Shown: positions 10,142-32,634 of the stretch, in pieces
How positions within the stretch are numbered: position 1 is the first letter of the stretch
Layout: every line of letters begins with the position of its first letter
From: a candidate division WOR-3 bacterium
GTDB taxonomy: Bacteria; Hydrothermota; Hydrothermia; LBFQ01; DSFT01
Length of the DNA stretch: 64,000 nucleotides
Direction: 5' to 3'
NCBI GenBank assembly: GCA_039802865.1
Contig: JBDRXL010000001.1
Span: 1,723 to 65,722, forward strand
Notes under the pieces: model-generated
Database searches by the model: none
What the model was told of the DNA's origin: nothing
What the model saw: the letters and a program-made list of their open reading frames with translations, nothing else
Position numbers and translations under genes: made by a program

Positions 10142-11192
10142 CTTTTATATCCTCCTTTTGAATTCTATTTAAAGTTTCTTCAACAACTTTAAAAATATCT
10201 CTAAACTTAATTTTCCCTTCTAAAAAACTATAAACTGCAATTTCATTTGAAGCATTCATAATTGTAGGATAATATGATAATTTTTCTAAACAAAAATAAG
10301 CAATTTTTAAAGATGGGAATTTTTCAAAATCTGGTTTTAAAAATGTTAATTTTTCAAAATCATAGGGATGTGTAATAGTTGATGGTTTTTCAAGTCTTTG
10401 AGGATAACTTAAAGCATAAGCAATAGGTATTCTCATATCTGGAAATCCTAAATGTGCCAATAATGAACCATCTTTTAATTGAACAAATGAATGAATTATA
10501 CTTTGGGGATGAATTACAACATCTATGTTTTTAGTATCAAATAAATAATAGGCTTCAATAATTTCAAGAGCTTTATTAAATAAAGTTGCAGAATCAATAG
10601 TAATTTTCTTACCCATTTTCCATGTAGGATGCTTTAAAGCATCTTCAACACTAACATTTTCCATCTCTTCAATTGTTAAGTTCAAAAATGGACCTCCTGA
10701 TGCAGTTAAAATAATTCTTTCAAATTCTTCTTTATATGGATTTATAAGTTGAAAAATAGCAGAATGTTCAGAATCAACAGGTATTATAATAGAATTTGAA
10801 TTTTTTAAATGATTTTTTACTATTTTTCCAAATGAAACAAGAACTTCCTTATTAGCAAGAGCTATATTTATATTATTTTTTATTGCCTTTAAAACAGGAA
10901 ATATAGAAAATGTTCCAGTCGTAGAAACAAATAATAAATCTATATTCTCTATAAGCTCTAAAATTTCATCCTTTCCTTTATAAATTTTAAATTCCTCACT
11001 CTTAATATCTAAATTCTCATTTATAAATCCAACTTTTTTAACATTAAATTCCTTTGCAATTTCAAATAATTTCTCATAATTTGAATAAGAAACCAAAAAT
11101 TCAATTTTATATAAATTTTTAAACTTTCTAATTACTTCAATTGTTTGAATGCCTATTGAACCAGTAGCTCCAATTATACCTATTCTTTTCAT
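10050..11192 (-). CDS. dxr: 1-deoxy-D-xylulose 5-phosphate reductoisomerase
   Basis: N-terminal NADPH-binding fold IGIIGATGSIG and conserved Dxr core. About 380 aa. Confidence 0.85.
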   Translation of the reverse strand: MKRIGIIGATGSIGIQTIEVIRKFKNLYKIEFLVSYSNYEKLFEIAKEFNVKKVGFINENLDIKSEEFKIYKGKDEILELIENIDLLFVSTTGTFSIFPVLKAIKNNINIALANKEVLVSFGKIVKNHLKNSNSIIIPVDSEHSAIFQLINPYKEEFERIILTASGGPFLNLTIEEMENVSVEDALKHPTWKMGKKITIDSATLFNKALEIIEAYYLFDTKNIDVVIHPQSIIHSFVQLKDGSLLAHLGFPDMRIPIAYALSYPQRLEKPSTITHPYDFEKLTFLKPDFEKFPSLKIAYFCLEKLSYYPTIMNASNEIAVYSFLEGKIKFRDIFKVVEETLNRIQKEDIKDETLEDLLYVDNLSRTIANSIVSEIQRNCK

Positions 11193-11194: not shown

Positions 11195-11212
11195 TTTAAA
11201 AAATTTTAAAAG
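11195..11212 (-). promoter_or_regulatory. Promoter-like motif TTTTAAAATTTTTTAAAAT directly upstream of the dxr start
   Basis: A variant of the recurrent palindromic motif, located 2 nt before the start codon. Confidence 0.3.
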
Positions 11213-11918
11213 CATAATAAATACCAATTTTAAATTCCTTTTCATTTATTATAAAATCCCCTCTGATATTATTATAAGATACTGAAAATCCATAAATCAT
11301 ATTATAATCCTTTGTTTTTAAGTTTTGCCATACTCCACCCCTTAACATCAAATATTCCCTATATATAAAAAATTCAACATTACTAAATGCATAAAATGTA
11401 GTATCTATATTTGAAATTCCAAATGTTAAAAATCTATAAATTGTTGGTTCATATGAAATAGCTAAAATTCCATTAAATGTATTTCTATACTCTCCATAAA
11501 ATCTAAAACTTGCTTGCTCAAATGAAGCAATTTTAAAAAATCCCCTTATTTCAAAACTATCTTTAATATATCCAACTGAAAGCTTTATTTGATGTTTATC
11601 GAAAATACTAAAATTAGAGCCAACATTAAAATTAATTTTATCTCCAATATAAAATCCATTAAAACCAACATCAATTTTATTAAATTTATAACCCAAACCC
11701 AATCCATATATTGTATCAAAATAAAAACTATAAACAAAGTTTTCTAAAATGGGGAATGTAAAATAGGCTTTTTTATAAGTTATATCAAATTGCAAAGCAT
11801 TATAAAATAATATTTGAGATGCTGGGAAATAGAACCTTTCACTTTCATCAGATATAATTTTATTAAAAAATCCTAAGCCTTCTTGTCTTATAAGAGTTGA
11901 TATTAAAAAGTGTAGCAT
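11196..11918 (-). CDS. Hypothetical protein, possibly an outer-membrane beta-barrel
   Basis: Alternating aromatic/hydrophobic beta-strand pattern and a C-terminal ...YYAFKIF ending in Phe. No clear signal peptide in the annotated N-terminus. Confidence 0.3.
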   Translation of the reverse strand: MLHFLISTLIRQEGLGFFNKIISDESERFYFPASQILFYNALQFDITYKKAYFTFPILENFVYSFYFDTIYGLGLGYKFNKIDVGFNGFYIGDKINFNVGSNFSIFDKHQIKLSVGYIKDSFEIRGFFKIASFEQASFRFYGEYRNTFNGILAISYEPTIYRFLTFGISNIDTTFYAFSNVEFFIYREYLMLRGGVWQNLKTKDYNMIYGFSVSYNNIRGDFIINEKEFKIGIYYAFKIF

Positions 11919-11959
11919 AGTTGAAAGTTTAAAGGAATAACAATTTAACCATTAAACTT

Positions 11960-12955
11960 TTGGCTATGAAAATAAGAGAACTTGAACTTATCAATTTTAA
12001 AAAATTCTCCCACTTAAAAATTCAATTCTCTGAAAATATCAATTTAATTATAGGTAAAAATAGAGCTGGAAAAACTACTATTATTGAAGCAATTAGTTAT
12101 ATTTCTATTCCTCGCTCTTTTAGAAATGTAAAGGATGAATACTTAATTAAGTTTAATGAGAATGGATTTTCAGTAAAAGCAATATTTTCTAACTTAACAG
12201 AACATTATGTTTTAATAACTTATAAGAAAAATGGATTTAAGATAATAACACTTGACAATAAAAGAGTTAAGACATTTTTAAAGCTTTTTGAAAAATTTCC
12301 AGTTTTAACATTCCATTCAAATAATTACAATATAATAGAACAATCCCCAGAAATAAGAAGAAAATTTTTTGATTGGTTCTTTTCTATATTGGATTATGAA
12401 TATTTTGTAAGTCTTTATAAATATAAGAAAATTTTAGAACAAAAAAATAAAGCCTTAAAACTAAAAAGTGATGTTTTAATATGGAATAGACAATTAAAAG
12501 AAGTTTCAAATTACATAATCAAAAAAAGGGAAGAATACATTGAAAAATTAAATTCTATTATAAAAGAACAAGACCAAAATATAAAAATTGAATATGTAAA
12601 TTCTTTAAAAGATAAAACATTTGAAAGTGTTTTAGAATTTGAGATAAAAAGAGGATTTAGTATAATAGGACCTCACAGAGATGATTATAAGTTTTATTAT
12701 AAAAACTATGATTCAAAGTTTTTTTCATCAGAGGGTGAAAAAAGGAAAATTTTCTTAGAGCTTTCGCTTGCTATGATAAAATTAAGTAAAATTATTAAAA
12801 ATGAAGAACCTATTATAATGTTTGATGACCCATTTAGTGTTTTAGATGAAAATGAACTAATTGATTTATTAAATAAAATTGAAAAATTAAACTTACAAGT
12901 AATAATAACCTCTATAAGACCAATTAAAATTAATGCCCATATTATTAACCTTTAA
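11960..12955 (+). CDS. RecF-family ATPase, copy 1
   Basis: Walker A GKNRAGKTTIIEAISY near the N-terminus, signature-like SEGEKRKIF, and Walker B/D-loop IIMFDDPFSVLDE near the C-terminus. Confidence 0.65.
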   Translation: MAMKIRELELINFKKFSHLKIQFSENINLIIGKNRAGKTTIIEAISYISIPRSFRNVKDEYLIKFNENGFSVKAIFSNLTEHYVLITYKKNGFKIITLDNKRVKTFLKLFEKFPVLTFHSNNYNIIEQSPEIRRKFFDWFFSILDYEYFVSLYKYKKILEQKNKALKLKSDVLIWNRQLKEVSNYIIKKREEYIEKLNSIIKEQDQNIKIEYVNSLKDKTFESVLEFEIKRGFSIIGPHRDDYKFYYKNYDSKFFSSEGEKRKIFLELSLAMIKLSKIIKNEEPIIMFDDPFSVLDENELIDLLNKIEKLNLQVIITSIRPIKINAHIINL

Positions 12956-12963
12956 AATTTTCA
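12949..12963 (+). promoter_or_regulatory. Promoter-like motif CCTTTAAAATTTTCA located 2 nt upstream of the ATG of recF-like copy 2
   Basis: A recurrent motif that overlaps the stop codon of copy 1. Confidence 0.4.
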
Positions 12964-15156: not shown

Positions 15157-16022
15157 ATTATATTTGTGCTCCCATCTAAAGAAATTATAATATTATCAAT
15201 TAATCTTGTTTTTCCAAAGAAAACCGCTAAGGCTATTAAAACTTCCCCTTTAATTTCGCTTATTGGTTTTAAATTTTTTGTATCAACAATTTGAATATAT
15301 TGAATTTTAGCAAGTGGTGCATTTTCTATTATAAATTTTTCCATCTCACTTATTATTTTATTACTATCTCTTTCACCATTTTCAATTAAATTTTTAGCAA
15401 GCATTAGAGATTTATATAAAACTGTTGCTTGTTTTCTTTCTTCTGGATTTAAATATACATTTCTTGAAGACATTGCAAGTCCATCAGATTCTCTAATAGT
15501 TGGTCCTGGAATAATTGTAATATCTAAATTTAAATCTCTTACCATTCTTTTAATTATGAAATATTGTTGTGCATCTTTTAAACCAAATACTGCAATATGA
15601 GGTTTTACAATATTAAATAATTTAAGAACAACTGTTGCAACTCCCCTAAAATGCCCTGGTCTAAACTTTCCACAAAGCTCTTCATCCAAATTTTTCACTT
15701 CAACATATGTTGAAAAATCTTCTAAATACATTTCTTTTTCATCAGGAACAAATACAATATCAACATTCTCCTTTTCACATAATTTTAAATCTCTTTCCAA
15801 ATCTCTTGGATATTCCTTAAAATCTTCATTAGGTCCAAATTGTAATGGATTTACAAAAATAGAAACTACTAAAATATGTGATTTTTTTCGTGCTATTCTA
15901 AATAATGATAAATGGCCTTCATGTAAATAACCCATAGTAGGAACAAATCCTATGGTTTTACCTTCCCTTCTATAAACTTCTGACAAATCCATCATTTCAC
16001 CTATGCTTTTAATAACTTTCAT
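15153..16022 (-). CDS. panC: Pantoate--beta-alanine ligase
   Basis: Motif [15 protein letters not shown] and typical ~285-aa length. Stop overlaps the trpS start. Confidence 0.85.
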
Positions 16023-17119
16023 ATCTCAAGTTCATAAGAATTTATAAATTCTATATTATTGTTCAAAAGTATGTTTTCTAATTGTGGTGGAATAAGATAA
16101 CTAATCAAAATTCTAAATTGCCTCCCACCTATCTCATTACACTTCTCTATAAATTTATTAACTTCTTTTTGACTTAATCTCGTTTTCGCTTCACCTATAA
16201 TTATAAATTCTTCTCCATCTCTTTTGCCCTTTCCATATATATTCACCTCTATATATTTTTTTCCTAATTTTATATATCCTCTTTTAAGTGGTTCAATTAT
16301 CTCAATGTTATATTTTTCTTTTAGAAGTTTTGGCAAATATCTGATTGCTCTATCTTCAAGTAAATATCCAAAATTATCACTTAATGTTTCAAGTTTTTTC
16401 CTTGTTTGTTTATTAACTTTTTCTGACCTTTCAAAAGCTTTTGTTAAGTTGTTTATTCTTTCAGTTAGTTCAATTAAAGCCTTTTCTAATCTATCTATCC
16501 TTTCACCTTGTTCTTTTGTTATTTGTCTTAGTTCATTTACTGCTTGTCTTAATTCACTTACTGCTTGTGTTAATTCCATTACCGCTTTTTCTAATTTTTC
16601 TATTCTTTCTCCATGTTCTTTTGTTATTTCTCTTAATTCATTTACAGACTTTGTTAAACTTTCAATAGCTTGCCATATTCTTTGAAATTCTTCATTCATT
16701 CTTTGCTCCATTCTATCCATTCTTTGATTGCTTTCCTTAATAGCTTGTCTTAATTCATTTACTGCATGTGTTAGCTCAATTATTTTCTCACTATGCTCTT
16801 TACTTACTTCTCTTAATTCACTAACTGCTTGTGCTAAAACATTTACTCTTTCAGTTAATTCAATCAAAGCTTTCTCTAATATATCTATCCTTTCACCCTG
16901 CTCCTTACTTACTTTGGTTAGCTCAATTAAGGCCTTTTCTAACCTGTCAAACCTTTCATTATGAGCTCTATTTCCCTCCCTAATTATATCCCATAGCTCT
17001 TGTATCATTCTCCTATTTTGCTCGATCTCCTCCTTTATTATGATTTCTACAATTTCTCTTATGGAATCTCTATATTCTTCTGGAAGTTTTTCTAATATCT
17101 TGTTTATTTTTTCTATCAT
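16019..17119 (-). CDS. Coiled-coil protein with 35-aa heptad repeats and a C-terminal PD-(D/E)XK-like domain (resembles the DUF3782-type family)
   Basis: Repeats of [32 protein letters not shown]. C-terminal ...LEDRAIRYL...IEVNIYGK...IIIGEAKTR. Recurrent promoter motif directly upstream. Confidence 0.55.
16430..16960. repeat. Imperfect ~105-bp tandem repeats in coding DNA (five or more units)
   Basis: Visible nucleotide-level repetition (ttgttcttttgttatttgtcttagttcatttactgcttgtcttaattcacttactgcttgtg...) matching the 35-aa protein repeats. Confidence 0.5.
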
Positions 17120-17121
17120 AA

Positions 17122-17136
17122 AGAAAATTTTAAAGC
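17122..17136 (-). promoter_or_regulatory. Promoter-like motif GCTTTAAAATTTTCT 3 nt upstream of the start of the coiled-coil gene
   Basis: Recurrent motif. Confidence 0.4.
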
Positions 17137-19403
17137 TTTATTTTCCAATTATAAATAGCATTTGAGACTACAAAGATATCAGAAAGAGCCATTGCAAAAG
17201 CAGAATATATTGGATGAAAAGAAATATAAAAACCTGCAAAAGGTATAAGAACGATATTATAGAAAAATGTCCAAAATAAATTCCATCTCATTTTACTACT
17301 TGCAATTTTAGAAATTTCAAAAGCTTTCAAAATTCCATCAATATCACTCTTAATAAGAATAATATCTCCACTCTCTTTTACAATATCAAGAGCATTTGAA
17401 ACTGCAATTGATAAATCTGCTTTTGAAAGAACAATAGCATCATTAATTCCATCTCCTATATATAACACTTTATGCCCCTTTTCCTTTAAATTTTCTACAA
17501 ATTTTAATTTATCAAATGGACTTAAATTTGAATAAAATTCTTCTATTCCAAGTTCATTACAAACCTTTTTAACATTCTCATAACTATCACCACTTAAAAC
17601 AATTATTTTATAATTCTTCTTTTTAAGAATATCTATTAACTTTTTAGCATTTTCTTTTATTACATCTTCAAAAACAAGCTCAAAAGCTCCATATCCTTCA
17701 ATATAATAACCAATATCAAAATTAACATTTAAATGTTCTCTTTCAAATAATTTCCTATTTCCTACAATTACTTTTCTATTATTCACAATTCCTCTAATCC
17801 CCTCCCCTCTTATATATTCAAATTCTTTAACCTCGTAAAATTCTCCATTATAATTATTCAAAATTGCTTTTGAGATAGGATGCTCATTCAATTTTTCAAT
17901 TGATGCTAAATAAATTAAATGCTCATAAGGTATATTACTTTTTAATGTTAATTTTCCTTCTGTAAGTGTTCCTGTTTTATCAAATATAATAATATCAATT
18001 TTATTAGCTCTTTCAAGAGAAGCGGAATTTTTAATAATTATACCATTTTTAAGAGCTTTATTAATACTAACTGCTATAACAAGTGGAATAGCAATTCCAA
18101 TTGCACAAGGACAAGCAATAACAAGAACAGATATTAATTTCAAAAGTGCAATCTCAAAATTAGCTTTTATAAACCAAAATATAAATACAATTATTGAAAA
18201 TATAACAACAGTTGGAGTAAATATCGCTGATACTCTATCCGCTAAACTTTCAAGAACTGATTTTTCCCTTTGAGCATACCTTGAAATTTTTAAAATCTCA
18301 TTAAATAATGTATTACTTCCAACTCTTAATGCTTTTACTTTCAAATATCCTTCTTTAAGAATAGTTCCTTGAAAAACTTCATCATTTTTAGATTTTTTAA
18401 CAGGTTTAAACTCTCCACTAAAAGCACTTTCATCAACATAACCTTCTCCCTCAATTATAACCCCATCAGCAGGAACTAAAAATCCTTCCTTTACTATAAA
18501 AATATCTCCTTCTTTTAAATCACTAATATCAATTTCTACTTCCTTATTATTATCCAAAATAATAACTTTTTTAGGCTTTTGAACATATAAATTTCTTAAA
18601 TTTTCAAAAACTTTAAATTTTGCCCTTTCTTCAAAAAATTTTCCAATTAAAATAACACTTATTATAATACCACTTGTTGCAAAATAAACGTGGTGAAAAG
18701 TTTGTGGATTTATAAAATGTAAAAATGAACCAAAGAATGCAGAAAGGGTTCCAAGGGATATTAATACATTCATATCTAAATTTTTAGCTTTTAAAGATTT
18801 TATAGCATTTTTTATAAAGTATAAACCAAAATAAAATTGAATAGGTATTGTAAGAATAAGTTGAATAATAGGATGTAAAGGCATTGAAAATTCATGTAAT
18901 AAGAGTGGAATTGAAAGAATTGAAGAAAATAAAGCCCTTCTTTTTATATCATTTAACTCTTTCTTCCTTTCTTCATATTCAATATCAAATGCACTTTTAC
19001 CCTCACTTAATAAATGAGCCTTATATCCAAGTTCTCTAATATCCCTTAAAATATCATTAATATCTTTTAATGGAGAAATTTCTAACTTTAAAACTTTGCT
19101 TTCAAAATCATAATAATAAGATAAAATAGAACTTTCATTTATTAAATAATTCTCTAAATTTTTATCAAACATTGGAATATAAATTTCAACATTTTTCGTT
19201 AAAATTTCATATCCTATGCTTGATAATTCTTGCTTTGCCTTTTTGAAATTAAAATTCTTTTCAAACTCAACAATTAGCAATTCACTTGCTAAATCCACAT
19301 CTACAAACTTCACATCTTCATAACTTTTAATTACATTTTTAACTGTTCTTGCACAATTTGAACAAGTCATACCTCTTACAGGAAGTTTTATTATTTTTGT
19401 CAT
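17130..19403 (-). CDS. copA: Copper/heavy-metal translocating P1B-type ATPase
   Basis: N-terminal HMA motif GMTCSNCA, TM CPC motif ACPCAIG, phosphorylation motif DKTGTLT, and GDGINDA. Confidence 0.85.
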   Translation of the reverse strand: MTKIIKLPVRGMTCSNCARTVKNVIKSYEDVKFVDVDLASELLIVEFEKNFNFKKAKQELSSIGYEILTKNVEIYIPMFDKNLENYLINESSILSYYYDFESKVLKLEISPLKDINDILRDIRELGYKAHLLSEGKSAFDIEYEERKKELNDIKRRALFSSILSIPLLLHEFSMPLHPIIQLILTIPIQFYFGLYFIKNAIKSLKAKNLDMNVLISLGTLSAFFGSFLHFINPQTFHHVYFATSGIIISVILIGKFFEERAKFKVFENLRNLYVQKPKKVIILDNNKEVEIDISDLKEGDIFIVKEGFLVPADGVIIEGEGYVDESAFSGEFKPVKKSKNDEVFQGTILKEGYLKVKALRVGSNTLFNEILKISRYAQREKSVLESLADRVSAIFTPTVVIFSIIVFIFWFIKANFEIALLKLISVLVIACPCAIGIAIPLVIAVSINKALKNGIIIKNSASLERANKIDIIIFDKTGTLTEGKLTLKSNIPYEHLIYLASIEKLNEHPISKAILNNYNGEFYEVKEFEYIRGEGIRGIVNNRKVIVGNRKLFEREHLNVNFDIGYYIEGYGAFELVFEDVIKENAKKLIDILKKKNYKIIVLSGDSYENVKKVCNELGIEEFYSNLSPFDKLKFVENLKEKGHKVLYIGDGINDAIVLSKADLSIAVSNALDIVKESGDIILIKSDIDGILKAFEISKIASSKMRWNLFWTFFYNIVLIPFAGFYISFHPIYSAFAMALSDIFVVSNAIYNWKIKL

Positions 19404-19423
19404 AGCTTTAAAATTTTAAAGTT
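19404..19423. promoter_or_regulatory. Perfect 16-bp palindrome CTTTAAAATTTTAAAG between the divergent copA and 19422 genes, placed 2-4 nt from both start codons
   Basis: Sequence is cat AGCTTTAAAATTTTAAAGTT g ATG. One palindrome serves both strands. Confidence 0.5.
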
Positions 19424-19862
19424 GATGAAATTTTATTTTTTATCTTTTCTGATATTTACAATTCTTGTTTTGATATTTGACTTTCTTTACTTTATTTTAT
19501 TTAAGAAATTTAATATACTTATAATGATTTCAATAGCATTAGCTGTTGTTTCAACAATTGTTGTTTCCATTCTTTATAGAAAATATAGAATCCTTTCAGA
19601 TTTTGATATAAAAATTGATAATGAAGGGATATTTTTTAAAATTCCAAAGCCCATTGCAGAAGAACTTGAACTTGAAGTTCAAAAGGGTAAATATCTATGG
19701 AGACAAATAAAAAATGTCCAATATGATAGTGAAAATCATATAATTTATTTAGTTTTAATAAGCAAAATTAAAATCCCTATTCCCTTAGTAGGTTTAAGAA
19801 ATGAGCAAATTGAAGAAATTTTATCTCAAATTAGTAAATATACAAGTGTTGAGGTAGTGTGA
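19422..19862 (+). CDS. Membrane protein of unknown function
   Basis: Two N-terminal TM helices followed by a soluble C-terminal domain. Lies upstream of nusB. Confidence 0.4.
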   Translation: MMKFYFLSFLIFTILVLIFDFLYFILFKKFNILIMISIALAVVSTIVVSILYRKYRILSDFDIKIDNEGIFFKIPKPIAEELELEVQKGKYLWRQIKNVQYDSENHIIYLVLISKIKIPIPLVGLRNEQIEEILSQISKYTSVEVV

Positions 19863-19865
19863 ATT

Positions 19866-20357
19866 ATGATTTATCCTTTTCATGGCAGAAGACTTGCGAG
19901 GGCTATTGTCGTTGAAACAATATATAATGCAGAATTATTGAATTTAAATATAGATGAAGTATTTGAAAGTATTTCAAGGATGAAAAAAGAATATTTTATG
20001 TCTATAATAAATGAAATTAAGAAAGAAAAAATAAGGGAAAAATTTATAAAAGACTTGGAGAATTGGGATGAAATTTTAAATTTTTCAAAAGCAATTATAA
20101 ATAGCTATAAAGAAAATAAGGAAAAAATTGAGATGATTTTAAGAGAAAATATTAAAGGAGATTGGGATTATGAAAGGATATTTTTGTTGGAAAAGTCAAT
20201 TTTAAAAACCGCTGTCTCTGAACTATTAGCATTAAATACCCCTTATAAAGTAATAATTTCAGAAGCTTTAAGTATAGGAGATTATTTCGTTTCCCAGGAG
20301 GCAGTTAAACTTATAAATGCAATATTAGATGGAATTGTAAAAGGTTTAAAGGTTTGA
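19866..20357 (+). CDS. nusB: Transcription antitermination factor NusB-like
   Basis: N-terminal RRLARAIVVETIYNAEL and C-terminal ERIFLLEKSILKTAVSELL...ISEALSIGDYF match the NusB pattern. Confidence 0.65.
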   Translation: MIYPFHGRRLARAIVVETIYNAELLNLNIDEVFESISRMKKEYFMSIINEIKKEKIREKFIKDLENWDEILNFSKAIINSYKENKEKIEMILRENIKGDWDYERIFLLEKSILKTAVSELLALNTPYKVIISEALSIGDYFVSQEAVKLINAILDGIVKGLKV

Positions 20358-20378
20358 ATAACTTTAAAATTATCAACT

Positions 20379-21353
20379 ATGTTAACTTTATTCTTTATTT
20401 CTCAGAGTATAGAAATATATTCATCTCAAGAAGAATCTAATTATGAAGGAAAGGAAGAAACAAATGATTACTTATGGTTGTGGAAGAAAGGTAAGAAATA
20501 TACTATCTCAATAAGAATTCTTCAACCAGAAGGAGCTATTGTTGAAATTCAAAAAGAAAATAATCCAAATCCAATTTATAAAGCTGATATTCCTACAACA
20601 TATACAAAAACTAAAGTATCTTCGCGTGATGAAGGATTTTATAGAATTATTGTAAGTAAAGAAAATTATAGCTGGTCTAAGAAATTTGAAATTAAATCTG
20701 GGTATGAATATACTCTTTATGTAAAATCACTATCTACAAAGGAAGAAAAAGAAGAATATAATGATTATTATATTATAAGAAAACCATCATCAGAGACAGT
20801 TTTAAAAATAGTAGAACCAAAAGGAGCAAATGCTGAAATTTATAAAGAAAATTCCACAGTCCCTATTCATAAAAGTGATATTCCAACAAGCAAATCATTA
20901 AATGAAAGTGGATATTATAAAGTTATTGTAACAAATGAAAGTAGTAAGTGGGAAGGAAAGGTAGAAGTAAAGAAAAATTATGAGAATATATTATATGTAA
21001 AAAATCTGGCTCCAATTTCAAAACCCACTTTAAAACCAATAAGTGAAGAAAGTTTCAAAAGCCTTATTCAAAATCTAAAAAGTGAAATATCTGAATTTAC
21101 AAGAATAGAAATTTTAAAAACCGCTGTTAGTAAAAATTATTTTCTTGTAAGACATTTAGAAGAGATACTTGACCAATTTACTTCTGAGCTTAATAAAGAG
21201 GAGGTTGTAAAAATTGTTTATCCAAAAATTATAGATAAGGAAAATATACATCAAATTTTCTCAAAATTTACTTCATCCCTTTCAAAAGAAAATATAAGGG
21301 AATGGATTGAAAATTATGATAGTGGTAATGTTGAAAAGGAGGGATGGAAATGA
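20379..21353 (+). CDS. Protein with two PEGA-like beta-sandwich repeats (probably envelope-associated)
   Basis: Two internal repeats (GAIVEIQKENNP...YRIIVSKENYSWSKKFEIKSGYEYTLYVK and GANAEIYKENST...YKVIVTNESSKWEGKVEVKKNYENILYVK). Confidence 0.4.
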   Translation: MLTLFFISQSIEIYSSQEESNYEGKEETNDYLWLWKKGKKYTISIRILQPEGAIVEIQKENNPNPIYKADIPTTYTKTKVSSRDEGFYRIIVSKENYSWSKKFEIKSGYEYTLYVKSLSTKEEKEEYNDYYIIRKPSSETVLKIVEPKGANAEIYKENSTVPIHKSDIPTSKSLNESGYYKVIVTNESSKWEGKVEVKKNYENILYVKNLAPISKPTLKPISEESFKSLIQNLKSEISEFTRIEILKTAVSKNYFLVRHLEEILDQFTSELNKEEVVKIVYPKIIDKENIHQIFSKFTSSLSKENIREWIENYDSGNVEKEGWK

Positions 21354-21871
21354 GGAAAATTATTCTTTTGTTTTTAAGTAGTTGTGTTTCTGGTTATTAT
21401 GCAAAAGGTTCAAATGTGAATTTAGATTATTCAAAAAATTATAAAGTATCAATAATTCCACAATTAAAAAGTAATTATTTGAATGAAGATGATTTAAGAA
21501 AAGTTTATGAAGCATTTTATTTAGAATTATCAAGGATTAAGAATTTTACTATTGTTGAAAGAGAAAAAGTTGAGGAGATATTAAAAGAATTGAATTTTCA
21601 GTATTCAGGACTTGTAGATATTTCAACAGCAAAGGAATTTGGTAAATTAACAGGTGCAGATTTAATAGCAAGTTATGAAGTAATTTCAGCAAAACAGGAG
21701 ATGGATGGTTTTCGTGAAATTGTAATTTCAATTAAAATAATAAATGTTCAAACGGGAGAAATAGCCTATATTGGAAGGGGAAGAGGTGAAGGATATGATG
21801 ATAAAATTACGATTATAGATATGGCTGTTAGCAATTCATTACATACTTTAAAACAAACTTTTAAGAAATGA
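21344..21871 (+). CDS. Small lipoprotein with a CsgG/TolB-N/LpoB-like fold signature
   Basis: Lipobox LSSC. Motif LSRIKNFTIVEREKVEEILKELNFQYSG resembles the CsgG/FlgT-N family motif (F.VVER..L..IL.E..FQ.SG). SD sequence GGAGGG. Confidence 0.4.
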   Translation: MEMRKIILLFLSSCVSGYYAKGSNVNLDYSKNYKVSIIPQLKSNYLNEDDLRKVYEAFYLELSRIKNFTIVEREKVEEILKELNFQYSGLVDISTAKEFGKLTGADLIASYEVISAKQEMDGFREIVISIKIINVQTGEIAYIGRGRGEGYDDKITIIDMAVSNSLHTLKQTFKK

Positions 21872-22404
21872 AATATTTAATTTTATTATTAGTGTTAGGT
21901 TGTGCAAGTCAAACAAAAACAAAAAAATTAAATTATTTAGAAAATAATAAGAATTATAGAATTGCTTTAATATCATCAACAAAAAATCATAGCTCAATTT
22001 TAAATATAGTTGAAAATGAAATTGCTCAAAAACTATTAGAACTTAAAATATTTGAAGTAATAGAAAGGAAAGAGCTTGAAAAAGTATTAAATGAAATTAC
22101 ACTTACAAATGATACATTATCATTTGAGGAATTTGGAAAAGTAATAAATGCTGAACTATTGGGAATATATAATGTTGATGATTTTGTTAAGAAAAAGGAA
22201 AAAGTTTGCATTCCAGTAATATTTCATCATGAAATTATTTGTAAAGATGAAGATGTATTTGAAATAACAATTAGCTTTAAAATTATAGACTTGAAGACAT
22301 ATAAAGTTATATATGCAAATTCAGGTAGCTCAAAAGCTTATAATTTAGATGATTGTATAAAAAGTGCAATAGATGAAGTTATGTCAAAATTAGAAGGAGG
22401 TTAA
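21868..22404 (+). CDS. Small lipoprotein, paralog of the preceding gene (CsgG/TolB-N-like)
   Basis: Lipobox LGCAS. Motif LKIFEVIERKELEKVLNEITLT. 4-nt overlap with the upstream gene. Confidence 0.4.
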   Translation: MKYLILLLVLGCASQTKTKKLNYLENNKNYRIALISSTKNHSSILNIVENEIAQKLLELKIFEVIERKELEKVLNEITLTNDTLSFEEFGKVINAELLGIYNVDDFVKKKEKVCIPVIFHHEIICKDEDVFEITISFKIIDLKTYKVIYANSGSSKAYNLDDCIKSAIDEVMSKLEGG

Positions 22405-22407
22405 GCC

Positions 22408-23190
22408 ATGATGTTATTTTTATTTTTTCAAATGAGCAAGGCAGTTGAAACAATAAAGGATGGGAAAGTAGATTGGTCAAAGGGGATTGTAACTGCTAAG
22501 GGATATGGAGTTTTTGATATAAATGCAAAGAACGTAAATGCTGAAATTTTGAAAGCGCAAAGAGTAGCAGTTGTTGTCGCTCAAAGGAACTTACTTGAAA
22601 CAATAAAGGGTGTTTATATAAATTCTGAAACAATTGTTGAAGATTATATGTTAAAGAGTGATCTTATAGTTAGTAGGGTTAATGGAATTGTAAAAGGAGC
22701 AAGAATGATAGGAGAGCCTAAAATTGATAGACAAAATGGTATTGTAGAAGTTGAGCTTGCTGTTGATTTATATGGAGATAATGGATTAGTAAGTGCTATT
22801 CTTCCAGAAATTATAAAAAATACAAAAAAACAAAACTTAGATGATATTAAGGATAATCCAAGCTTTTCTGCACTTGTTTTAGATGGTTCAGGAACAAATA
22901 TAAAGCCATCACTATTTCCTAAAATTTATGATGAAAATGGAAACTTAATTTTTGATACTGCCTGGCTTATTGATGAAAATAATCCAAAAGCTCAAAGAGT
23001 TATTAAATTTGTTGAAAATTTAAATGAGATATTAAATGACCCAGAACTTAAAGATAATCCACTTGTAATCAAAATTAAATCTGTTTTAAATGGAAGGGAT
23101 ATTGTAGTTGATAAAGATAGTGCAAATAAAATAAAGTGGCTTAAAAAAGCTTGGGAGCTTGGCAAAAAAATTGTATTAACATTATTTTAA
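22408..23190 (+). CDS. LPP20/FlgP-like domain protein
   Basis: Pattern GYGV...A...A.VVAQRNLLETIKGVYINSETIVEDYML.SD.I.S.V.GIVKGA is typical of LPP20-family domains. SD sequence GGAGG. Confidence 0.4.
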   Translation: MMLFLFFQMSKAVETIKDGKVDWSKGIVTAKGYGVFDINAKNVNAEILKAQRVAVVVAQRNLLETIKGVYINSETIVEDYMLKSDLIVSRVNGIVKGARMIGEPKIDRQNGIVEVELAVDLYGDNGLVSAILPEIIKNTKKQNLDDIKDNPSFSALVLDGSGTNIKPSLFPKIYDENGNLIFDTAWLIDENNPKAQRVIKFVENLNEILNDPELKDNPLVIKIKSVLNGRDIVVDKDSANKIKWLKKAWELGKKIVLTLF

Positions 23191-23202
23191 AAGGAGGTAA
23201 TT

Positions 23203-24234
23203 ATGTTAATTTTTTTGATTTTACAAACAGAAAAAAGTATAATTGTAGAAGGAGTTTCATCTACAAATAATGTTAGCTTAGATGTAGCAAGAGATAGAGC
23301 AATTTCCGATGCTCTTAGAAATGCTGTTGAACAAGCACTTGGAACATATATTGAAAGTCAAACTATTATTGAAAATTATAATCTTATTGAAGATAATATA
23401 CTTTCAAAATCAAAAGGCTATGTTAAGAATTATAAAATTATTTCTGAAAAACAAGAGGATGGACTTTATAGAGTAAAAATAATAGCAATTGTAGATAATA
23501 AGAAAATTGAAGATGATTTATCATCATTAAAAATTCTTATTTTACAAAAAGAAAGACCAAGAATTTTAATTCTTGCAAATGAGGAATTCTTAGAAGATAT
23601 TTTAATTGAAAAATTTAGGGATAAGGAATTTCCAATTGTAGATCAAAATAAACTGAAAGAAAAATTAAAAAAGGAAGAGATAAGACTTATATTAGAAGGA
23701 GCAAAAGATAGTTTATTAGCAAGATATGCATTAAGGGAGGGAGCAGAAATTATTTTAATTGCTAAATATAATGAGAATAAGAAAAAAGTTGAGGGGTATA
23801 ATATAGATTTAAAAGAAGTTTCTATATCTGCAAGATTAATTGATCCAAGATCCGCAGAAGTATTAGCTTCTACAAGAATTGACAAATCTTATCCAAATAT
23901 AACCCAAACTATTAAAAATCAATTAGTAGATTCATTATTTAGTGTATTATTACCAAAAACAATAAAGCAATTTCAAGAAAATAATATAGTAAAAATTTAT
24001 GTTTATAATGTTAGTTTTGATGATGTTGGAAAATTAAGAGAAGTGCTAATTAATAATGTTAGAAAGGTTGATAAAATTATTTTAAGGGAATTTTTAGAAA
24101 ATAATGCTATTTTAGAATTAATAACTCCTGAAAATCCAACTTCAATAGCCCAAATTATAAAAAGTAATTTTAAAAATGTTGAAATTAGTGAAATAGGAGG
24201 AATGAATATATATGTAAGATGGAAAGGAAAATAG
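23203..24234 (+). CDS. Protein with an N-terminal LPP20/FlgP-like domain and a C-terminal extension
   Basis: Motif VARDRAISDALRNAVEQALGTYIESQTIIENYNLIEDNILSKSKGYVKNYKII. SD sequence AAGGAGG. Confidence 0.4.
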   Translation: MLIFLILQTEKSIIVEGVSSTNNVSLDVARDRAISDALRNAVEQALGTYIESQTIIENYNLIEDNILSKSKGYVKNYKIISEKQEDGLYRVKIIAIVDNKKIEDDLSSLKILILQKERPRILILANEEFLEDILIEKFRDKEFPIVDQNKLKEKLKKEEIRLILEGAKDSLLARYALREGAEIILIAKYNENKKKVEGYNIDLKEVSISARLIDPRSAEVLASTRIDKSYPNITQTIKNQLVDSLFSVLLPKTIKQFQENNIVKIYVYNVSFDDVGKLREVLINNVRKVDKIILREFLENNAILELITPENPTSIAQIIKSNFKNVEISEIGGMNIYVRWKGK

Positions 24235-24956
24235 CATTTATTAGTGATTTTGGAGAAAGTTTTTATGTAGGACAAGTAAAGGGAGTAATTAAATCAATAA
24301 ATCCAAATGCTGAAATTATTGATATTACTCATAATGTTCCAAAATTTAATATAAAAGCAGGTCAATTTGTATTATATAGCTCATATAAGTATTTTCCAAA
24401 GGGGACAATATTTTTAGTAGTTATTGATCCTGGTGTAGGTTCAAATAGGAAGGCAATTGCTATTGAAAGTGATAATTATTATTTTGTAGGTCCAGATAAT
24501 GGATTATTTGGTTTTTTGAAAAATTACAAAGCATATGAAATAGAAATCCCAAAGAATGCAAGTTATACATTTCATGCAAGAGATGTATTTGCACCTTTTT
24601 GTGCAAAATTATCAAAAGGCTATAATATAGAAGATATTGCAAAACCTATTGAAGATATCATTAAATTAGATTTTAGAGAAGTTAAAGTTTTTGAAAATTA
24701 TATAATTGGTGAAATTGTATTCGTAGATGATTTTGGAAATTTGATAACAAACATTGAATTTAATGAGAATTTTAAATATGTGGAGATTAATGAAATTAAA
24801 ATTAGTAAAAAAGTTAGAACTTATAGTGATGCAAAGAAGGGAGAATTAGTATTTTTAAAGGGTTCTTATGAATTTTTGGAAATTAGTATAGTTGAAGGAA
24901 ATGCAAGTAAAGTGTTAAATGTAAGTTTTGGAGAAAAGGTAAAAGTTTATATTTAA
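24219..24956 (+). CDS. SAM hydroxide adenosyltransferase family protein (DUF62 / fluorinase-like)
   Basis: N-terminus IAFISDFGESFYVGQVKGVIKSINP is characteristic of this family. About 245 aa. Confidence 0.65.
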   Translation: MERKIAFISDFGESFYVGQVKGVIKSINPNAEIIDITHNVPKFNIKAGQFVLYSSYKYFPKGTIFLVVIDPGVGSNRKAIAIESDNYYFVGPDNGLFGFLKNYKAYEIEIPKNASYTFHARDVFAPFCAKLSKGYNIEDIAKPIEDIIKLDFREVKVFENYIIGEIVFVDDFGNLITNIEFNENFKYVEINEIKISKKVRTYSDAKKGELVFLKGSYEFLEISIVEGNASKVLNVSFGEKVKVYI

Positions 24957-24960
24957 AGTC

Positions 24961-24976
24961 CTTTAAAATTTTCAAA
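24961..24976 (+). promoter_or_regulatory. Promoter-like motif CTTTAAAATTTTCAAA 3 nt upstream of the pgk ATG
   Basis: Recurrent motif. Confidence 0.4.
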
Positions 24977-24978
24977 CT

Positions 24979-26169
24979 ATGAAAAAACTTTCAATTATAG
25001 ATGTTCCAAAGGAAAGTTTAAAAAACAAAAGAATTTTTTTAAGGGTTGATTTTAATGTTCCTATTGAAAATAACAAAGTTGTAGATGATTATAGAATTAA
25101 AAAAACTCTTCCAACAATAAATTATTTAAAAGATAGTGGGGCTATTTTAATTTTAGCTTCTCATCTTTCAAGACCAAAAGGTATTGAGTTAAAATATTCC
25201 CTAAAACCAGTTTCAGAGCATTTAAGTAAATTATTAAATACACAGGTAAAGTTCTTTGATATTCAAGAAAATAATTATCGTGATTATTTAAGAAGGATAA
25301 AATCAGAAGTTTTAAAATTAAAGGAAGGTGATATTTTGCTTTTAGAAAATATAAGATTTGATGAAGGGGAAGAGAAAAATGATGAAAATTTAATAAATGA
25401 ATTATATAATTTTGGTGAAATTTATGTAAATGATGCATTTGGAACAAGCCATAGAAAACATGCATCTGTTTATGGTCTTGCTTTAAGATATAATTTGAGA
25501 CTTGCAGGAATATTAATGAAAAATGAAATTGAATATCTTTATAAAGTAAAGGAAAATCCTATTCAACCATTTTATAGTATTATTGGTGGGGTTAAAGTTT
25601 CTGATAAAATAAAAGTGCTTGAAAATCTTATAAAAGTTTCAAAGAAAATTCTTATTGGTGGAGCTATGGCATATACATTTTTAAAAGTTAAAGGAATAAA
25701 TGTAGGAAGTTCAATAATTGATGAAAAAAGCTTAGATTTTGCTAAAAGTTTCTTGGATAAATATAGTGAAAAAATTATTTTACCAATTGACCATATTGTA
25801 AAGAATTCTAAAATTATGAATGTTGAAGAAATAATGGAAGGATACATAGGAATGGATATTGGTAAGAAAACAATTGAATTATTTAAGCAAGAGCTGAAAG
25901 ATGCAAAAATGATATTCTTTAATGGACCACTTGGAAAATTTGAAGATAAGGAATTTAGTAGTGGAACATTTGAAATTGCTAAATTTTTAAGTGAGCTTAC
26001 AAAAAGAGGTGTAATTACAGTAATCGGAGGGGGTGATACAGTATCTGCAATTCATAGTGCTAATCTAAAAGATGAGGATTTTAGTCATGTATCAACAGGT
26101 GGGGGAGCAACCTTAGAGTTAATATCTGGTGAAGAAATGCCTGGAATAGAGGTTTTAAGCAATGTTTAA
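24979..26169 (+). CDS. pgk: Phosphoglycerate kinase
   Basis: Motif RVDFNVP and the conserved C-terminal GGGDTVSA / STGGGA motifs. Confidence 0.9.
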   Translation: MKKLSIIDVPKESLKNKRIFLRVDFNVPIENNKVVDDYRIKKTLPTINYLKDSGAILILASHLSRPKGIELKYSLKPVSEHLSKLLNTQVKFFDIQENNYRDYLRRIKSEVLKLKEGDILLLENIRFDEGEEKNDENLINELYNFGEIYVNDAFGTSHRKHASVYGLALRYNLRLAGILMKNEIEYLYKVKENPIQPFYSIIGGVKVSDKIKVLENLIKVSKKILIGGAMAYTFLKVKGINVGSSIIDEKSLDFAKSFLDKYSEKIILPIDHIVKNSKIMNVEEIMEGYIGMDIGKKTIELFKQELKDAKMIFFNGPLGKFEDKEFSSGTFEIAKFLSELTKRGVITVIGGGDTVSAIHSANLKDEDFSHVSTGGGATLELISGEEMPGIEVLSNV

Positions 26170-26515
26170 GAAAAAAAATGAGCATAATAGCGTAGATACA
26201 ATTATTGGGAGTAAAGGAATTTTTAGAGGAAATATAGAAGTAGATGGAGGAGCTTTAATAGATGGAAAAATAGAAGGAAACGTAAAAGTAAATGGAATTT
26301 TAATTGTTGGAAAGGAAGGATATATTATTGGGGAGGTTTGGGCAAGTGATTTAATAATTAGTGGCAAGATTGAGGGAAAAGTTTACATTAAAAATAGAGT
26401 TGAAGTTCAAAATACAGGAAAAATAGATGGAGAATTACATTGTAAAGTATTAGTTGTGGATGAAGGGGGATATGTAAACGGATTGATGGATATGAAATAT
26501 CAAGAGGTTGAATGA
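26162..26515 (+). CDS. Bactofilin-family cytoskeletal protein
   Basis: Beta-helical repeat pattern GxIxGxIxVDG..I.G.IEG.V.V.G.L.V with typical ~117-aa size. Confidence 0.7.
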   Translation: MFKKKNEHNSVDTIIGSKGIFRGNIEVDGGALIDGKIEGNVKVNGILIVGKEGYIIGEVWASDLIISGKIEGKVYIKNRVEVQNTGKIDGELHCKVLVVDEGGYVNGLMDMKYQEVE

Positions 26516-28191
26516 TTCTCTATATAATTCAAATGCCATCAGATATAGAAAAAGCCTTAATTTACAACTCAAAACCAGATAGTCAAATTTTAATTGATTT
26601 TAAGAAGAAATATCCAGATATAGAATGGGTATTTGAATTTTTATATCAAAGGGATTTTAAAAAATTTGATATTGAAAAGTTAATAAAACTTAATGCCAAA
26701 AAGCAATATATAACAGCAATTTTAAATATGTATCTTGAAAGCTTAAGCAAAAGGAATTTAAAAGATAGTTTAAGAAGTATTTATTTAAAATATAAAAATT
26801 ATTTTAATGCAAAAAGCTATGAAATTTTATATTCAATTTTAAAAGACAAAAATATCCTTTTAGAGCTTGCTAATAATTTTCCAAGCTCTGAAATAGTTTA
26901 TAAATCTATAAATGAGTTGAAATTATCTCAACTTACAAAAGCACAAATTTTATATTATAATGAGAAATATAAGGATTTAATAGAACAAATTCAACCAGAA
27001 TCTGCACTTTATTTTTATGTAGATGCTTTATCAAAGTTAAGTGATTTTAAAAAGGCTAGTGAGATATGTAAAAATTATAAAAATACAAATTTTAAAAAAT
27101 CAGATTATTTTTTTGAATGTGCATTAAATTTGTTAGAATATGGTGATACAATAACTGCTTTTGAATTTATTGATAGCTTATATGAATATAATCCTTATAT
27201 AGCGGTTAGGCTTGGAGGATATAATGCAATTGTTTCAAAAAGATATGACTTATTCTTTAATACATTAAAAGATACACTCATTGGTGAAGTTCAATTTATG
27301 AAAGCACTTGTTTATTATGTTAAAAGAGATTATATAAATACGATTATAACCCTTGAAAAAATTCCCAAAATTACAAATGATAACTTTGAAATTTCAAGAG
27401 CATATTATTGGCTTTATAAATTAACAAGAAATAATGATTATTTAATGAAAATTTACAAAACTCATCCAAATGGTTATTATGCTTTATATTCAAACTTCTA
27501 TCCAAAAATTATAGATACTACATTTTATGATGAAAGCAAATTTCAATTATATCAAAAGCCAATAATTTTAGAAATCCTTGGATTTAGAAGTGAATTTTGG
27601 AGATTTTTGAACGAAGAAAATAGAATTTATCTTATATATATGTTAAATAAAATTGGCTCATATGACCTTGCTCTTGATTTAGCTGAAAACTTAATATCTC
27701 CTTTTATTCCAAAAGATATTATTTTTATGGCTTATCCTACACCATATTTTCAAGAATTTTTAAATGCTAGTAATAAAAGTGGAATTGAAATAGAATTATT
27801 ATATGCAATTGTAAGGGAAGAAAGTAAGTTTAATAAGAATGTAGTTTCAAGAGCAGGAGCTATGGGAATAGCACAAGTTATGCCAGAAGATTTTAAACGC
27901 TGGTCAAGAAAACTAAATTTACCATATAAACCTTTTGATGTTAAAATAAACTTATTAATTGGAGCTATGCACTTTAAAGAATTCTTAGAAATGTTTAATT
28001 ATGATATTAACCTTACAATATGTGCTTATAATGCTGGTCCTAATGCTGTTAAAAGATGGTTAAGTGTTTTAGATTATAATGATACAGACTTATTTTTTGA
28101 GCTAATTCCATATAGAGAAACGAGAAATTATTATAGAAGGGTTATGAGAAGCTATCTTATGTATAAATATATATTTTCAAACTTCAAATGA
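26512..28191 (+). CDS. Lytic murein transglycosylase (Slt family) with an N-terminal helical domain
   Basis: SLT catalytic motif ESKFNKNVVSRAGAMGIAQVMP...AYNAGP. Confidence 0.7.
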   Translation: MILYIIQMPSDIEKALIYNSKPDSQILIDFKKKYPDIEWVFEFLYQRDFKKFDIEKLIKLNAKKQYITAILNMYLESLSKRNLKDSLRSIYLKYKNYFNAKSYEILYSILKDKNILLELANNFPSSEIVYKSINELKLSQLTKAQILYYNEKYKDLIEQIQPESALYFYVDALSKLSDFKKASEICKNYKNTNFKKSDYFFECALNLLEYGDTITAFEFIDSLYEYNPYIAVRLGGYNAIVSKRYDLFFNTLKDTLIGEVQFMKALVYYVKRDYINTIITLEKIPKITNDNFEISRAYYWLYKLTRNNDYLMKIYKTHPNGYYALYSNFYPKIIDTTFYDESKFQLYQKPIILEILGFRSEFWRFLNEENRIYLIYMLNKIGSYDLALDLAENLISPFIPKDIIFMAYPTPYFQEFLNASNKSGIEIELLYAIVREESKFNKNVVSRAGAMGIAQVMPEDFKRWSRKLNLPYKPFDVKINLLIGAMHFKEFLEMFNYDINLTICAYNAGPNAVKRWLSVLDYNDTDLFFELIPYRETRNYYRRVMRSYLMYKYIFSNFK

Positions 28192-29090: not shown

Positions 29091-29099
29091 AATTTTAAG
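29084..29099 (+). promoter_or_regulatory. Promoter-like motif GCTTTAAAATTTTAAG 3 nt upstream of the ATG at 29102
   Basis: Recurrent motif. Confidence 0.4.
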
Positions 29100-29101
29100 T
29101 T

Positions 29102-29587: not shown

Positions 29588-29596
29588 AATTTTCAT
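29583..29596 (+). promoter_or_regulatory. Promoter-like motif GTTTAAAATTTTCA 2 nt upstream of the hpt ATG
   Basis: Recurrent motif. Confidence 0.4.
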
Positions 29597-29597
29597 T

Positions 29598-32595: not shown

Positions 32596-32596
32596 A

Positions 32597-32631: not shown

Positions 32632-32634
32632 TTT

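Follow-up and report, generated by a model that had tools for sequence, protein, structure and literature searches.

The question raised by this locus is what a short AT-rich sequence, repeated in nearly the same form, is doing immediately in front of start codons on both strands. The DNA analysed (the window, below) is a stretch of 64,000 nucleotides from contig JBDRXL010000001.1 of a candidate division WOR-3 bacterium, a phylum whose present NCBI name is Caldifarciminota. It is 26% GC and nearly all coding, and its gene content is bacterial (MnmG, PBP2, RecJ, a copper P-type ATPase and an OmpA-domain protein). The window MnmG is encoded identically in several public candidate division WOR-3 metagenome-assembled genomes (MAGs; GCA_039802805 and its sisters, and GCA_965648835); a search of genome contigs with the same protein returned one short relative only. 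The repeated element, a 15-nt motif with the consensus vCTTTAAAATTTTMA, precedes about 38-40% of the window genes. In our view it is very probably the core promoter of a housekeeping sigma-70-type RNA polymerase, placed so close to the genes that their mRNAs would be leaderless or nearly so.

When up to one mismatch is allowed, CTTTAAAATTTT occurs 44 times in the window compared to 16.5 +/- 4.3 in dinucleotide shuffles, a level reached in 0 of 100 shuffles, and a 15-nt position weight matrix (PWM) finds 33 matches at 14 bits or above where order-2 Markov simulations give 1.5 +/- 1.3. The exact 11-mer CTTTAAAATTT is present in 21 copies: 17 adjoin a start codon, one precedes tRNA-Leu and one a leader with a Shine-Dalgarno (SD) sequence, and the remaining two are orphans. 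To avoid circularity, 8-mers were also counted blind to the motif, between -30 and +12 around the longest-frame starts of 68 open reading frames (ORFs). The word CTTTAAAA ranked at the top (18/68, p=8e-19); next came further, overlapping words from the motif, and the SD word AAAGGAGG ranked after them. Altogether, 28 motif copies are oriented toward a gene start. An earlier note on this DNA had listed 24 positions, all of which carry the motif or a near variant, although the copy that it placed at 43707-43722 lies about 6 nt away, at 43713-43727. Copies at 4368-4382 (-), 11921-11935 (-), 20361-20375 (+) and 58466-58480 (-), as well as six intragenic orphans, were not in it. Its wording, that the motif is genome-wide, holds for the window and about 200 kb of related loci, which is the DNA in which occurrence was checked.

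Could such a motif be a functionless by-product of a 26% GC genome with TAA stops in short spacers? Bare TAAAAT occurs 409 times in the window and six copies lie over an upstream TAA stop, both of which speak for this idea. However, we put the excess over order-2 Markov and dinucleotide-shuffle expectation at 20-fold at least, the copies keep a fixed orientation and start distance, and the motif is retained in a relative of 50% GC. A scan of viral contigs for CTTTAAAATTTTCA-N1-4-ATG returned 120 AT-rich contigs, each selected by one exact copy, and 109 of them had no second copy; none of the 120 contigs was a phage using this promoter, and their matches represent background. A compositional origin has, we believe, practically no chance of being correct.

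The spacing between TAAAAT and the start codon is narrowly distributed, being 6 nt at four genes, 7 nt (the mode) at eight, 8 at four, 9 at five, 10-11 at four and 13 at one, where the motif genes comprise 25 ORFs plus 62737. The claim that the motif ends 1-6 nt before start codons thus stands, since a TAAAAT-to-start distance of 6-11 nt corresponds to 1-6 nt past the last motif base. It had further been proposed that motif-bearing genes usually lack an SD and that operon-internal genes have one. With an anti-SD duplex of -6 kcal/mol or stronger as the criterion, an SD was found at 0/25 motif genes and 18/43 others (Fisher p=9e-5), in agreement with the proposal. Upstream of each of the 25 motif genes there is a positive gap (6-178 nt and typically 9-32 nt when co-directional), whereas SD-bearing and signal-less genes abut or overlap their upstream neighbour (gaps of -98 to +12), and none of the 43 genes that do not start a unit carries the motif. 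Because of this division between free and abutting upstream ends, we regard the motif as the mark of the first gene of each transcription unit. A strong copy is present at 7 of 10 divergent starts; the remaining ones are 4388-5227 (motif, SD leader and ATG), 11966 (a weak variant) and 62737 (copy present, with the gene leaving the window). At six co-directional starts, TAAAAT takes its first three bases from the TAA that ends the preceding gene. At four genes (43730, 59176, 62681 and 5288) TTG occupies the distance from the motif that is otherwise held by ATG. The start at 59176 is supported by the Metallophos Pfam profile, which aligned from residue 1, and that at 43730 by public annotation, which calls the same start. 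The orthologue of the 43730 gene in relative L001 has ATG.

The position of the motif is also that of a ribosome-binding site. It might be a non-SD ribosome-binding or enhancer element in the 5' untranslated region of leadered polycistronic mRNAs, as in the 'group B' genomes that are common in the FCB group (PMC6028130). Its mutual exclusion with SD agrees with this, as does an A/U-richness like that of S1-binding enhancers. Read-through transcripts are also likely given the lack of intergenic terminators: a scan of 17000-36999 found no credible ones, with 2 hairpin-like sites compared to 5.1 expected from shuffles. Group B motifs, however, precede every gene, and the class was rejected here on the absence of the motif at operon-internal genes (0/43). 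Moreover, a top-scoring copy, at 4368-4382 (-), lies 10 nt from the mature 5' end of tRNA-Leu, and a copy lies ahead of tRNA-Asp in relative L008. Where an SD intervenes, the motif is 23-30 nt upstream of the ATG; this order of motif, SD and ATG, seen at 5246-5260 (-), recurs in L009, L010, L014 and L015, and in the window it would represent a leadered transcript from the same promoter type. TAnnnT is matched at -10 spacing, and in distant relatives complete -35/-10 promoters stand in this position. Since copies precede tRNAs, precede SD leaders and skip operon-internal genes, the motif behaves as a signal for transcription and not translation, and we consider a ribosome-binding element very unlikely.

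The tRNA-Leu(taa) gene (4275-4363, -) is the sole RNA gene in the window, an Rfam scan of which returned no RNA family besides tRNA. Genes start 0-2 nt past tRNA 3' ends in the window (4020-4363, -), in L008 (16658-16733), in L019 (13740-13816) and at the same site in L020-L024. In the window, TTG 4274 (ORF MKSLKSYFFVLILGF...) is directly 3' of tRNA-Leu, in L008 tRNA-Asp is followed by 't ATG', and in L019-L024 tRNA-Val lies against the preceding gene's stop codon, with 'tt ATG' at its 3' end. In this mitochondrion-like 'tRNA punctuation' layout, tRNA processing would free leaderless or near-leaderless mRNAs.

The anatomy of the motif was taken from the 28 window copies aligned on their core. 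The upstream C is present in 25/28 and is never preceded by T, the T after it is present in 27/28, the TTTAAAATT core is nearly invariant, and the 3' end reads T (21/28), A or C, and then A (22/28). A -35 box was not found: upstream information is at most 0.3 bit per position, both in these 28 copies and in 35 non-redundant copies from related loci, and the best TTGACA match at 15-20 nt spacing scores 3.39 compared to 3.20 at random positions (p=0.27). A generic sigma-70 scan of 17000-36999 was uninformative because the DNA is so AT-rich (171 promoter-like pairs, 144 in shuffles); TG lay ahead of the -10 hexamer at only four of the 60 sites listed from it, none of which are motif copies.

A perfect 16-bp palindrome does lie, as first described, at 19406-19421 between divergent starts, ATG 19403 (-) and TTG 19422 or ATG 19425 (+). 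The palindrome exists because two opposite copies overlap by 12 nt in a 21-bp divergent spacer, one of which serves copA (ATG 19403, -) while its partner serves the gene of a small membrane protein (ATG 19425). From the symmetry, a dimeric DNA-binding factor had been suggested, and the motif could then be the operator of a global repressor, activator or nucleoid protein that reads the palindrome CTTTAAAATTTTAAAG. The core AAAATTTT is self-complementary and the conservation reaches well past the usual -10 hexamer, as might be expected of an operator. The suggestion of a dimeric factor nevertheless fails on the alignment, since the conserved C (25/28) has its mirror G in only 2/28 copies, which makes the motif asymmetric, and only three sites score on both strands. 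Copy orientation always matches the downstream gene. About 40% of genes carry the motif, and these have unrelated functions (efp, pgk, a hibernation factor, an ATPase subunit, DprA, an HPRT-like protein and methyltransferases) and are joined by tRNAs. Finally, the 10-30-bp spacers hold no other -10 candidate, so that a promoter would be needed there anyway. An operator is therefore unlikely; an extra factor may bind the promoter in addition to polymerase.

Read as a promoter, the motif would supply TAAAAT as the -10 hexamer (T-12, A-11 and T-7), with CTT at -15 to -13, a non-T base at -16, TTT(C/A)A at -6 to -2 and no -35 box. Transcription would start about 7 nt past the hexamer, the distance known between a -10 box and its start site, and would thus begin on the A of the start codon for spacers of 6-7 nt and 1-5 nt upstream of the start codon for those of 8-11 nt. 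About 40% of genes, the heads of all transcription units, would then give leaderless or near-leaderless mRNAs, for which an SD would therefore be unneeded, and operon-internal genes would use GGAGG or overlap-coupled starts. Because all specificity would reside in one 15-bp box, the promoter could fit spacers of 9-30 bp; the box may share TAA with an upstream stop codon, and two boxes may overlap head-to-head, which would give the palindrome. The outline of this scheme, a -10-like TAAAAT, a start about 7 nt downstream and SD kept for internal genes, was already in the earlier note. Every computational test agrees with it (geometry, SD exclusivity, restriction to unit starts, copies ahead of a tRNA and SD leaders, and conservation that includes the 50% GC relative), and on these grounds we infer that it is very probably correct.

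Loci at graded distance from the window were fetched with elongation factor P (EF-P), itself the product of a motif gene. In L008 (EF-P identity 86%, 25.5% GC) the same motif is found at efp and seven other genes, and the upstream neighbours of efp differ; efp orthologues thus retain the motif despite different upstream flanks. L009 (65%, 50% GC) has CCTTTAAAATT 6-11 nt before ATG. Since the motif is kept in this 50% GC relative, it is no by-product of AT richness. At greater distance, L010 (63%, 41% GC) has a degenerate TTAAAATTT or TATAAT adjoining ATG, L011 (55%, 38% GC) has mostly SD with few TAAAAT or TATAAT adjoining ATG, and L012 and L013 (47-52%, 38-43% GC) have TTGACA-17-TATAAT/TATATT, then 5-10 nt and ATG, with the same arrangement before tRNAs. 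Eleven further loci of the same clade (26-32% GC; in one of them TGT shares 81% identity with the window protein) carry 2-5 copies per 10 kb, a density seen in 12 related loci of 25-32% GC in all. The 35 non-redundant copies from clade loci reproduce the logo, and they too lack a -35 signal. The -35-less CTTTAAAATTT box appears from these comparisons to be specific to one clade. Since promoter boxes adjoin ATG across the relatives, leaderless expression looks widespread in this part of the phylum.

A separate 16-nt element, ATTATTRGACAAGGCA, lies upstream of some promoters in the relatives, about 19 nt (once 26 nt) before TAAAAT (efp, the tRNA-Asp/divergent pair and others). Its sites are at 9963-9973, 16786-16796 (-) and 16954-16964 in L008 and are also present in L019-L022, whereas the window lacks the element. 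Possible identities are a -35-like box into which a base has been inserted, an UP-like element and the site of a regulator.

The comparison with relatives also bears on whether the motif belongs to another promoter class, either the -7 element of Bacteroidetes or an archaeal-style TATA box with a transcription start site (TSS) about 25 nt downstream. Bacteroidetes sigma-ABfr promoters consist of TAnnTTTG at -7 and TTTG at -33. WOR-3 has been grouped near FCB bacteria, and TTTAAAA resembles the archaeal TATA box. On the other hand, the relatives use TTGACA/TATAAT and a standard group-1 sigma factor, the organism is bacterial (MnmG, PBP2 and OmpA), and a distance of 25 nt would put the TSS within N-termini that are well supported (EF-P and Metallophos). 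The Bacteroidetes register was rejected because the motif reads TAAAATTTT(C/A), which does not fit TAnnTTTG, and there is no TTTG at -33; the archaeal TATA distance was rejected at about 10 nt here compared to about 26 nt. We hold membership in either class to be highly improbable.

If the clade has its own promoter, its sigma factor is of particular interest. The sigma-A of five motif-bearing relatives (L014, L015 and L016, each at 8001-9626; L017, 3390-5036; L019, 10001-11626) are standard group-1 proteins with regions 1.2-4.2. Clade sigma-A keeps the melting residues, H455/E458 and R584/E585/R588/Q589 (E. coli numbering). At the T440 position, all clade members have M or I where T, rarely S, is found in 111 other sigma-A sequences, which include that of L010 and those of other WOR-3/Hydrothermia and of Verrucomicrobia. 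An unbiased scan for clade-specific residues at columns otherwise at least 85% conserved, aligned to E. coli sigma-70 383-613, yielded four positions, 440, 577, 583 and 593 (regions 2.4 and 4.2), plus one inserted T outside 383-613. The changes in region 4.2 are G577A, T583S and K593R; the other 111 keep G, T and K. In E. coli, T440 faces the -12 base pair and T440I alters -12 specificity (PMC2613000). Pfam region 1.1 (PF03979) was undetected in clade sigma-A and detected in the next-closest sigmas. Since a single evolutionary event is involved, the association of sigma and promoter amounts to a correlation of one.

Several points weigh against the promoter reading or parts of it. The sigma-A sequences retrieved (P0124, P0125, P0126, P0128 and P0242) are all from related, non-identical genomes. 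H455 and E458, by which TG is read in extended -10 promoters, are both unchanged in the relatives. Known sigma-70 contacts do not account for the strong conservation of positions -16 to -13 and -6 to -2. The leaderless state is predicted from geometry, and spacers of 9-13 nt imply leaders of 2-6 nt and not zero. Six of the 33 strong copies have no start close by and are intragenic or antisense. TTG is the start of four or five motif genes, and in E. coli it is a poor codon for leaderless initiation; if the mRNAs are truly leaderless, the lineage initiates on a 5'-terminal UUG. A bolder proposal is that the clade polymerase shifted from an ancestral TTGACA-17-TATAAT to one 15-bp box recognised by a changed sigma-A (T440M/I, G577A, T583S, K593R), letting promoters fit 10-25-bp spacers, share stop-codon bases and overlap head-to-head, and that, together with tRNA-punctuated genes, expression centres on leaderless translation to an extent for which no bacterial precedent is described. 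This is speculative, and we regard it as possible and, taken whole, rather doubtful.

The copies of the window are collected below.

Table. Motif copies in the window, with the distance from the TAAAAT hexamer to the start and the feature downstream.
Copy (strand)	Sequence	Distance and start	Downstream feature	Remarks	PWM score
623-637 (+)	CCTTTAAAATTTCAA	7 nt to ATG 640	gene 640-1158	TAA stop of 99-629 is first 3 nt of TAAAAT	19.5
1164-1178 (+)	ACCTTAAAATTTTAA	9 nt to ATG 1183	gene 1183-2628		15.3
4368-4382 (-)	GCTTTAAAATTTTCA	10 nt to tRNA 5' end	tRNA-Leu(taa) 4275-4363 (-)		21.2
5246-5260 (-)	ACTTTAAAATTTTCA	then 23 nt with AAGGAGGGG, then ATG 5227	gene 4388-5227	SD duplex -12.2 kcal/mol	19.4
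5265-5279 (+)	ACTATAAAATTTCAA	13 nt to TTG 5288	glycosyltransferase 5288-6313	weaker; back-to-back with 5246-5260	14.7
6307-6321 (+)	GCTTTAAAATTTTCA	6 nt to ATG 6323	hibernation factor S30AE, 6323-6610	over TAA stop of 5288-6313	21.2
11197-11212 (-)	CTTTTAAAATTTTTTAAAAT	before ATG 11192	gene 10050-11192	degenerate; 11195-11212 in the earlier note, weak variant CTTTTAAAATTTTTT	below threshold
11921-11935 (-)	CCTTTAAACTTTCAA	7 nt to ATG 11918	gene 11196-11918		16.5
11949-11963 (+)	CCATTAAACTTTTGG	7 nt from TAAACT to ATG 11966	divergent gene, to 12955	weak variant, read from the sequence	below threshold
12949-12963 (+)	CCTTTAAAATTTTCA	7 nt to ATG 12966	RecF/SMC_N-like, to 13970	over TAA stop of 11960-12955	20.9
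17122-17136 (-)	GCTTTAAAATTTTCT	7 nt to ATG 17119	gene 16019-17119	over TAA stop of copA 17130-19403	18.1
19405-19419 (+)	GCTTTAAAATTTTAA	10 nt to ATG 19425, 7 nt to TTG 19422	small membrane protein, to 19862	palindrome half	20.1
19408-19422 (-)	ACTTTAAAATTTTAA	9 nt to ATG 19403	copper P-type ATPase 17130-19403	other palindrome half; -10 hexamers share 2 bp	18.3
20361-20375 (+)	ACTTTAAAATTATCA	8 nt to ATG 20379	first gene of SD-linked run 20379-24956		15.4
22274-22288 (+)		about 120 nt before SD-led gene 22408		orphan in gene 21868-22404; internal promoter possible	14.8
24960-24974 (+)	CCTTTAAAATTTTCA	9 nt to ATG 24979	phosphoglycerate kinase		20.9
29084-29098 (+)	GCTTTAAAATTTTAA	8 nt to ATG 29102	TrkA_C protein	over TAA stop of 28188-29090	20.1
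29581-29595 (+)	AGTTTAAAATTTTCA	7 nt to ATG 29598	phosphoribosyltransferase	over TAA stop of 29102-29587	15.9
32598-32612 (-)	GCTTTAAAATTTTCA	7 nt to ATG 32595	elongation factor P, 32035-32595		21.2
32615-32629 (+)	GGTATAAAATTTCAA	10 nt to ATG 32635	PUA/methyltransferase, to 33762	weaker; public MAG annotations call same start	13.0
33763-33777 (+)	GCTATAAAATTTTCC	11 nt to ATG 33784	gene 33784-34848	next gene is SD-led ompA-like 34860	15.2
37725-37739 (+)	CCTTTAAAATTTAAA	6 nt to ATG 37741	N6/N4 DNA methyltransferase		16.2
39223-39237 (+)	GCTTTAAAATTTCAA	6 nt to ATG 39239	isochorismatase-family gene	overlapped by mnmG 39829	19.8
43713-43727 (+)	ACTTTAAAATTTTGG	7 nt to TTG 43730	ABC ATPase, 224 aa in MAG calls	L001 orthologue: CCATTAAAATTTTAA + tt + ATG	14.9
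46937-46951 (-)	CCTTTAAAATTTTAT	52 nt before ATG 46889		orphan in gene 46874-47197; internal promoter with leader possible, or chance	16.8
47201-47215 (-)	GCTTTAAAATTTCAA	8 nt to ATG 47197	gene 46874-47197		19.8
58466-58480 (-)	ACTTTAAAATTGTAG	11 nt to ATG 58459	DUF6754 protein 57338-58459	weaker; inside 3' end of upstream gene	14.0
59180-59194 (-)	GGTTTAAAATTTCAA	8 nt to TTG 59176	metallophosphoesterase		16.3
59193-59207 (+)	CCTTTAAAATTTTAA	9 nt to ATG 59212	flavin reductase	back-to-back with 59180-59194	19.8
60445-60459 (+)	GCTTTAAAATTTTTG	9 nt to ATG 60464	HD-domain/dGTPase-like protein		16.4
62684-62698 (-)	CCTTTAAAATTTTAA	7 nt to TTG 62681	DprA, 61641-62681		19.8
62721-62735 (+)	CCTTTAAAATTTTCA	6 nt to ATG 62737	A/V-type ATPase alpha/beta-family subunit, atpB-like	gene runs off window	20.9

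Strong intragenic copies are found at 22274-22288 (+), 46937-46951 (-), 51635-51649 (-), 53930-53944 (+) and 59092-59106 (+). Two are in sense, 52-120 nt ahead of the next gene, and two are antisense; it is possible that the former are internal promoters with leaders and the latter sources of antisense transcripts. Other features of the window concern its packing and its history. Convergent gene pairs abut or overlap at 2617/2628, 9302/9324, 13970/13972, 30096/30122, 45151/45161 and 61641/61675. Between mnmG and the ABC-transporter ATPase, at 41765-43551, lies a cassette of two genes, a 145-aa GTG ORF and an N6_Mtase/Eco57I-like DNA methyltransferase. In L001 the promoter of the ABC gene directly follows mnmG, and the common flank ...GGTTTTAAAGCC marks the junction of the cassette, which is probably an inserted island of the restriction-modification type. 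The Amidase_3 gene at 50959-52148 (-) is present as two overlapping ORFs (179 + 223 aa). It is a single gene of 410-411 aa in MAG loci L002, L005, L006 and L007 and has 232 aa in L003 and L004, which points to a frameshift, strain variation or an assembly error.

The consequences of such a promoter would be several. Gene callers that expect an SD would mis-place starts in this lineage; the motif pins them, including several TTG starts, and provides an operon model for an uncultivated phylum. A tightly packed AT-rich genome would specify its promoters through one extended -10 box able to overlap stops and neighbouring promoters. The natural substitution at the -12-contact residue T440, beside a changed promoter consensus, offers a testable link between structure and function. 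Finally, a deep-branching, thermophile-associated lineage would join the bacteria that rely heavily on leaderless mRNAs, with consequences for how the evolution of translation initiation is viewed.

How does the arrangement compare to known systems? Full-text searches for leaderless expression in WOR-3 or Hydrothermae returned nothing. In leaderless bacterial genes generally, TAnnnT occurs with its first T about 12 nt before the start (Zheng et al., PMC3160421), and in 'group C' genomes a Pribnow box lies at 6-8 nt from it and the other genes have an SD (Lomsadze et al., PMC6028130). As in these TA-led or GeneMarkS-2 group C genomes (Actinobacteria, Deinococcus-Thermus), a -10 TAnnnT here stands before operon-first genes, those without SD, and internal genes have SD; TAnnnT spacing, SD exclusivity, restriction to first genes and copies ahead of tRNAs and of SD leaders are all found in our data. 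The share of genes is also similar, at 25-50% in the known genomes and about 38-40% here. Unlike the TAnnnT or TAtaaT hexamer of those genomes, the motif has 15 conserved positions (vCTT-TAAAAT-TTTMA, about 15-20 bits) without a -35 in 26% GC DNA, and it fits spacers of 9-30 bp and can share bases with the preceding gene's stop codon. With the extended -10 (TGn) promoters of E. coli and Firmicutes (PMC2613000) it shares independence from a -35, which at the sequence level is seen here, and extra specificity just upstream of the -10. However, -15/-14 is C-T and not T-G (C-15 in 25/28 and T-14 in 27/28, on which count the TGn class was rejected), -13 and -6 to -2 are also conserved, and TGn promoters are a minority class whereas the motif is the default promoter type here. 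With Bacteroidetes sigma-ABfr promoters the motif has in common an AT-rich T-run element near the TSS, in a lineage sometimes placed near FCB; it differs in register, in lacking a -33 element and in that SD is used here (Bacteroidetes are largely without SD). Archaeal leaderless genes (group D, with a TATA box about 26 nt before the start) likewise have an AT-rich box at a fixed start distance, but that distance is about 10 nt here and the machinery is bacterial. The mechanism is of an already known kind, group C or TA-led, for which the WOR-3/Caldifarciminota lineage is new; the putative promoter, a single information-rich 15-bp box without a -35, is by its sequence a distinct variant.

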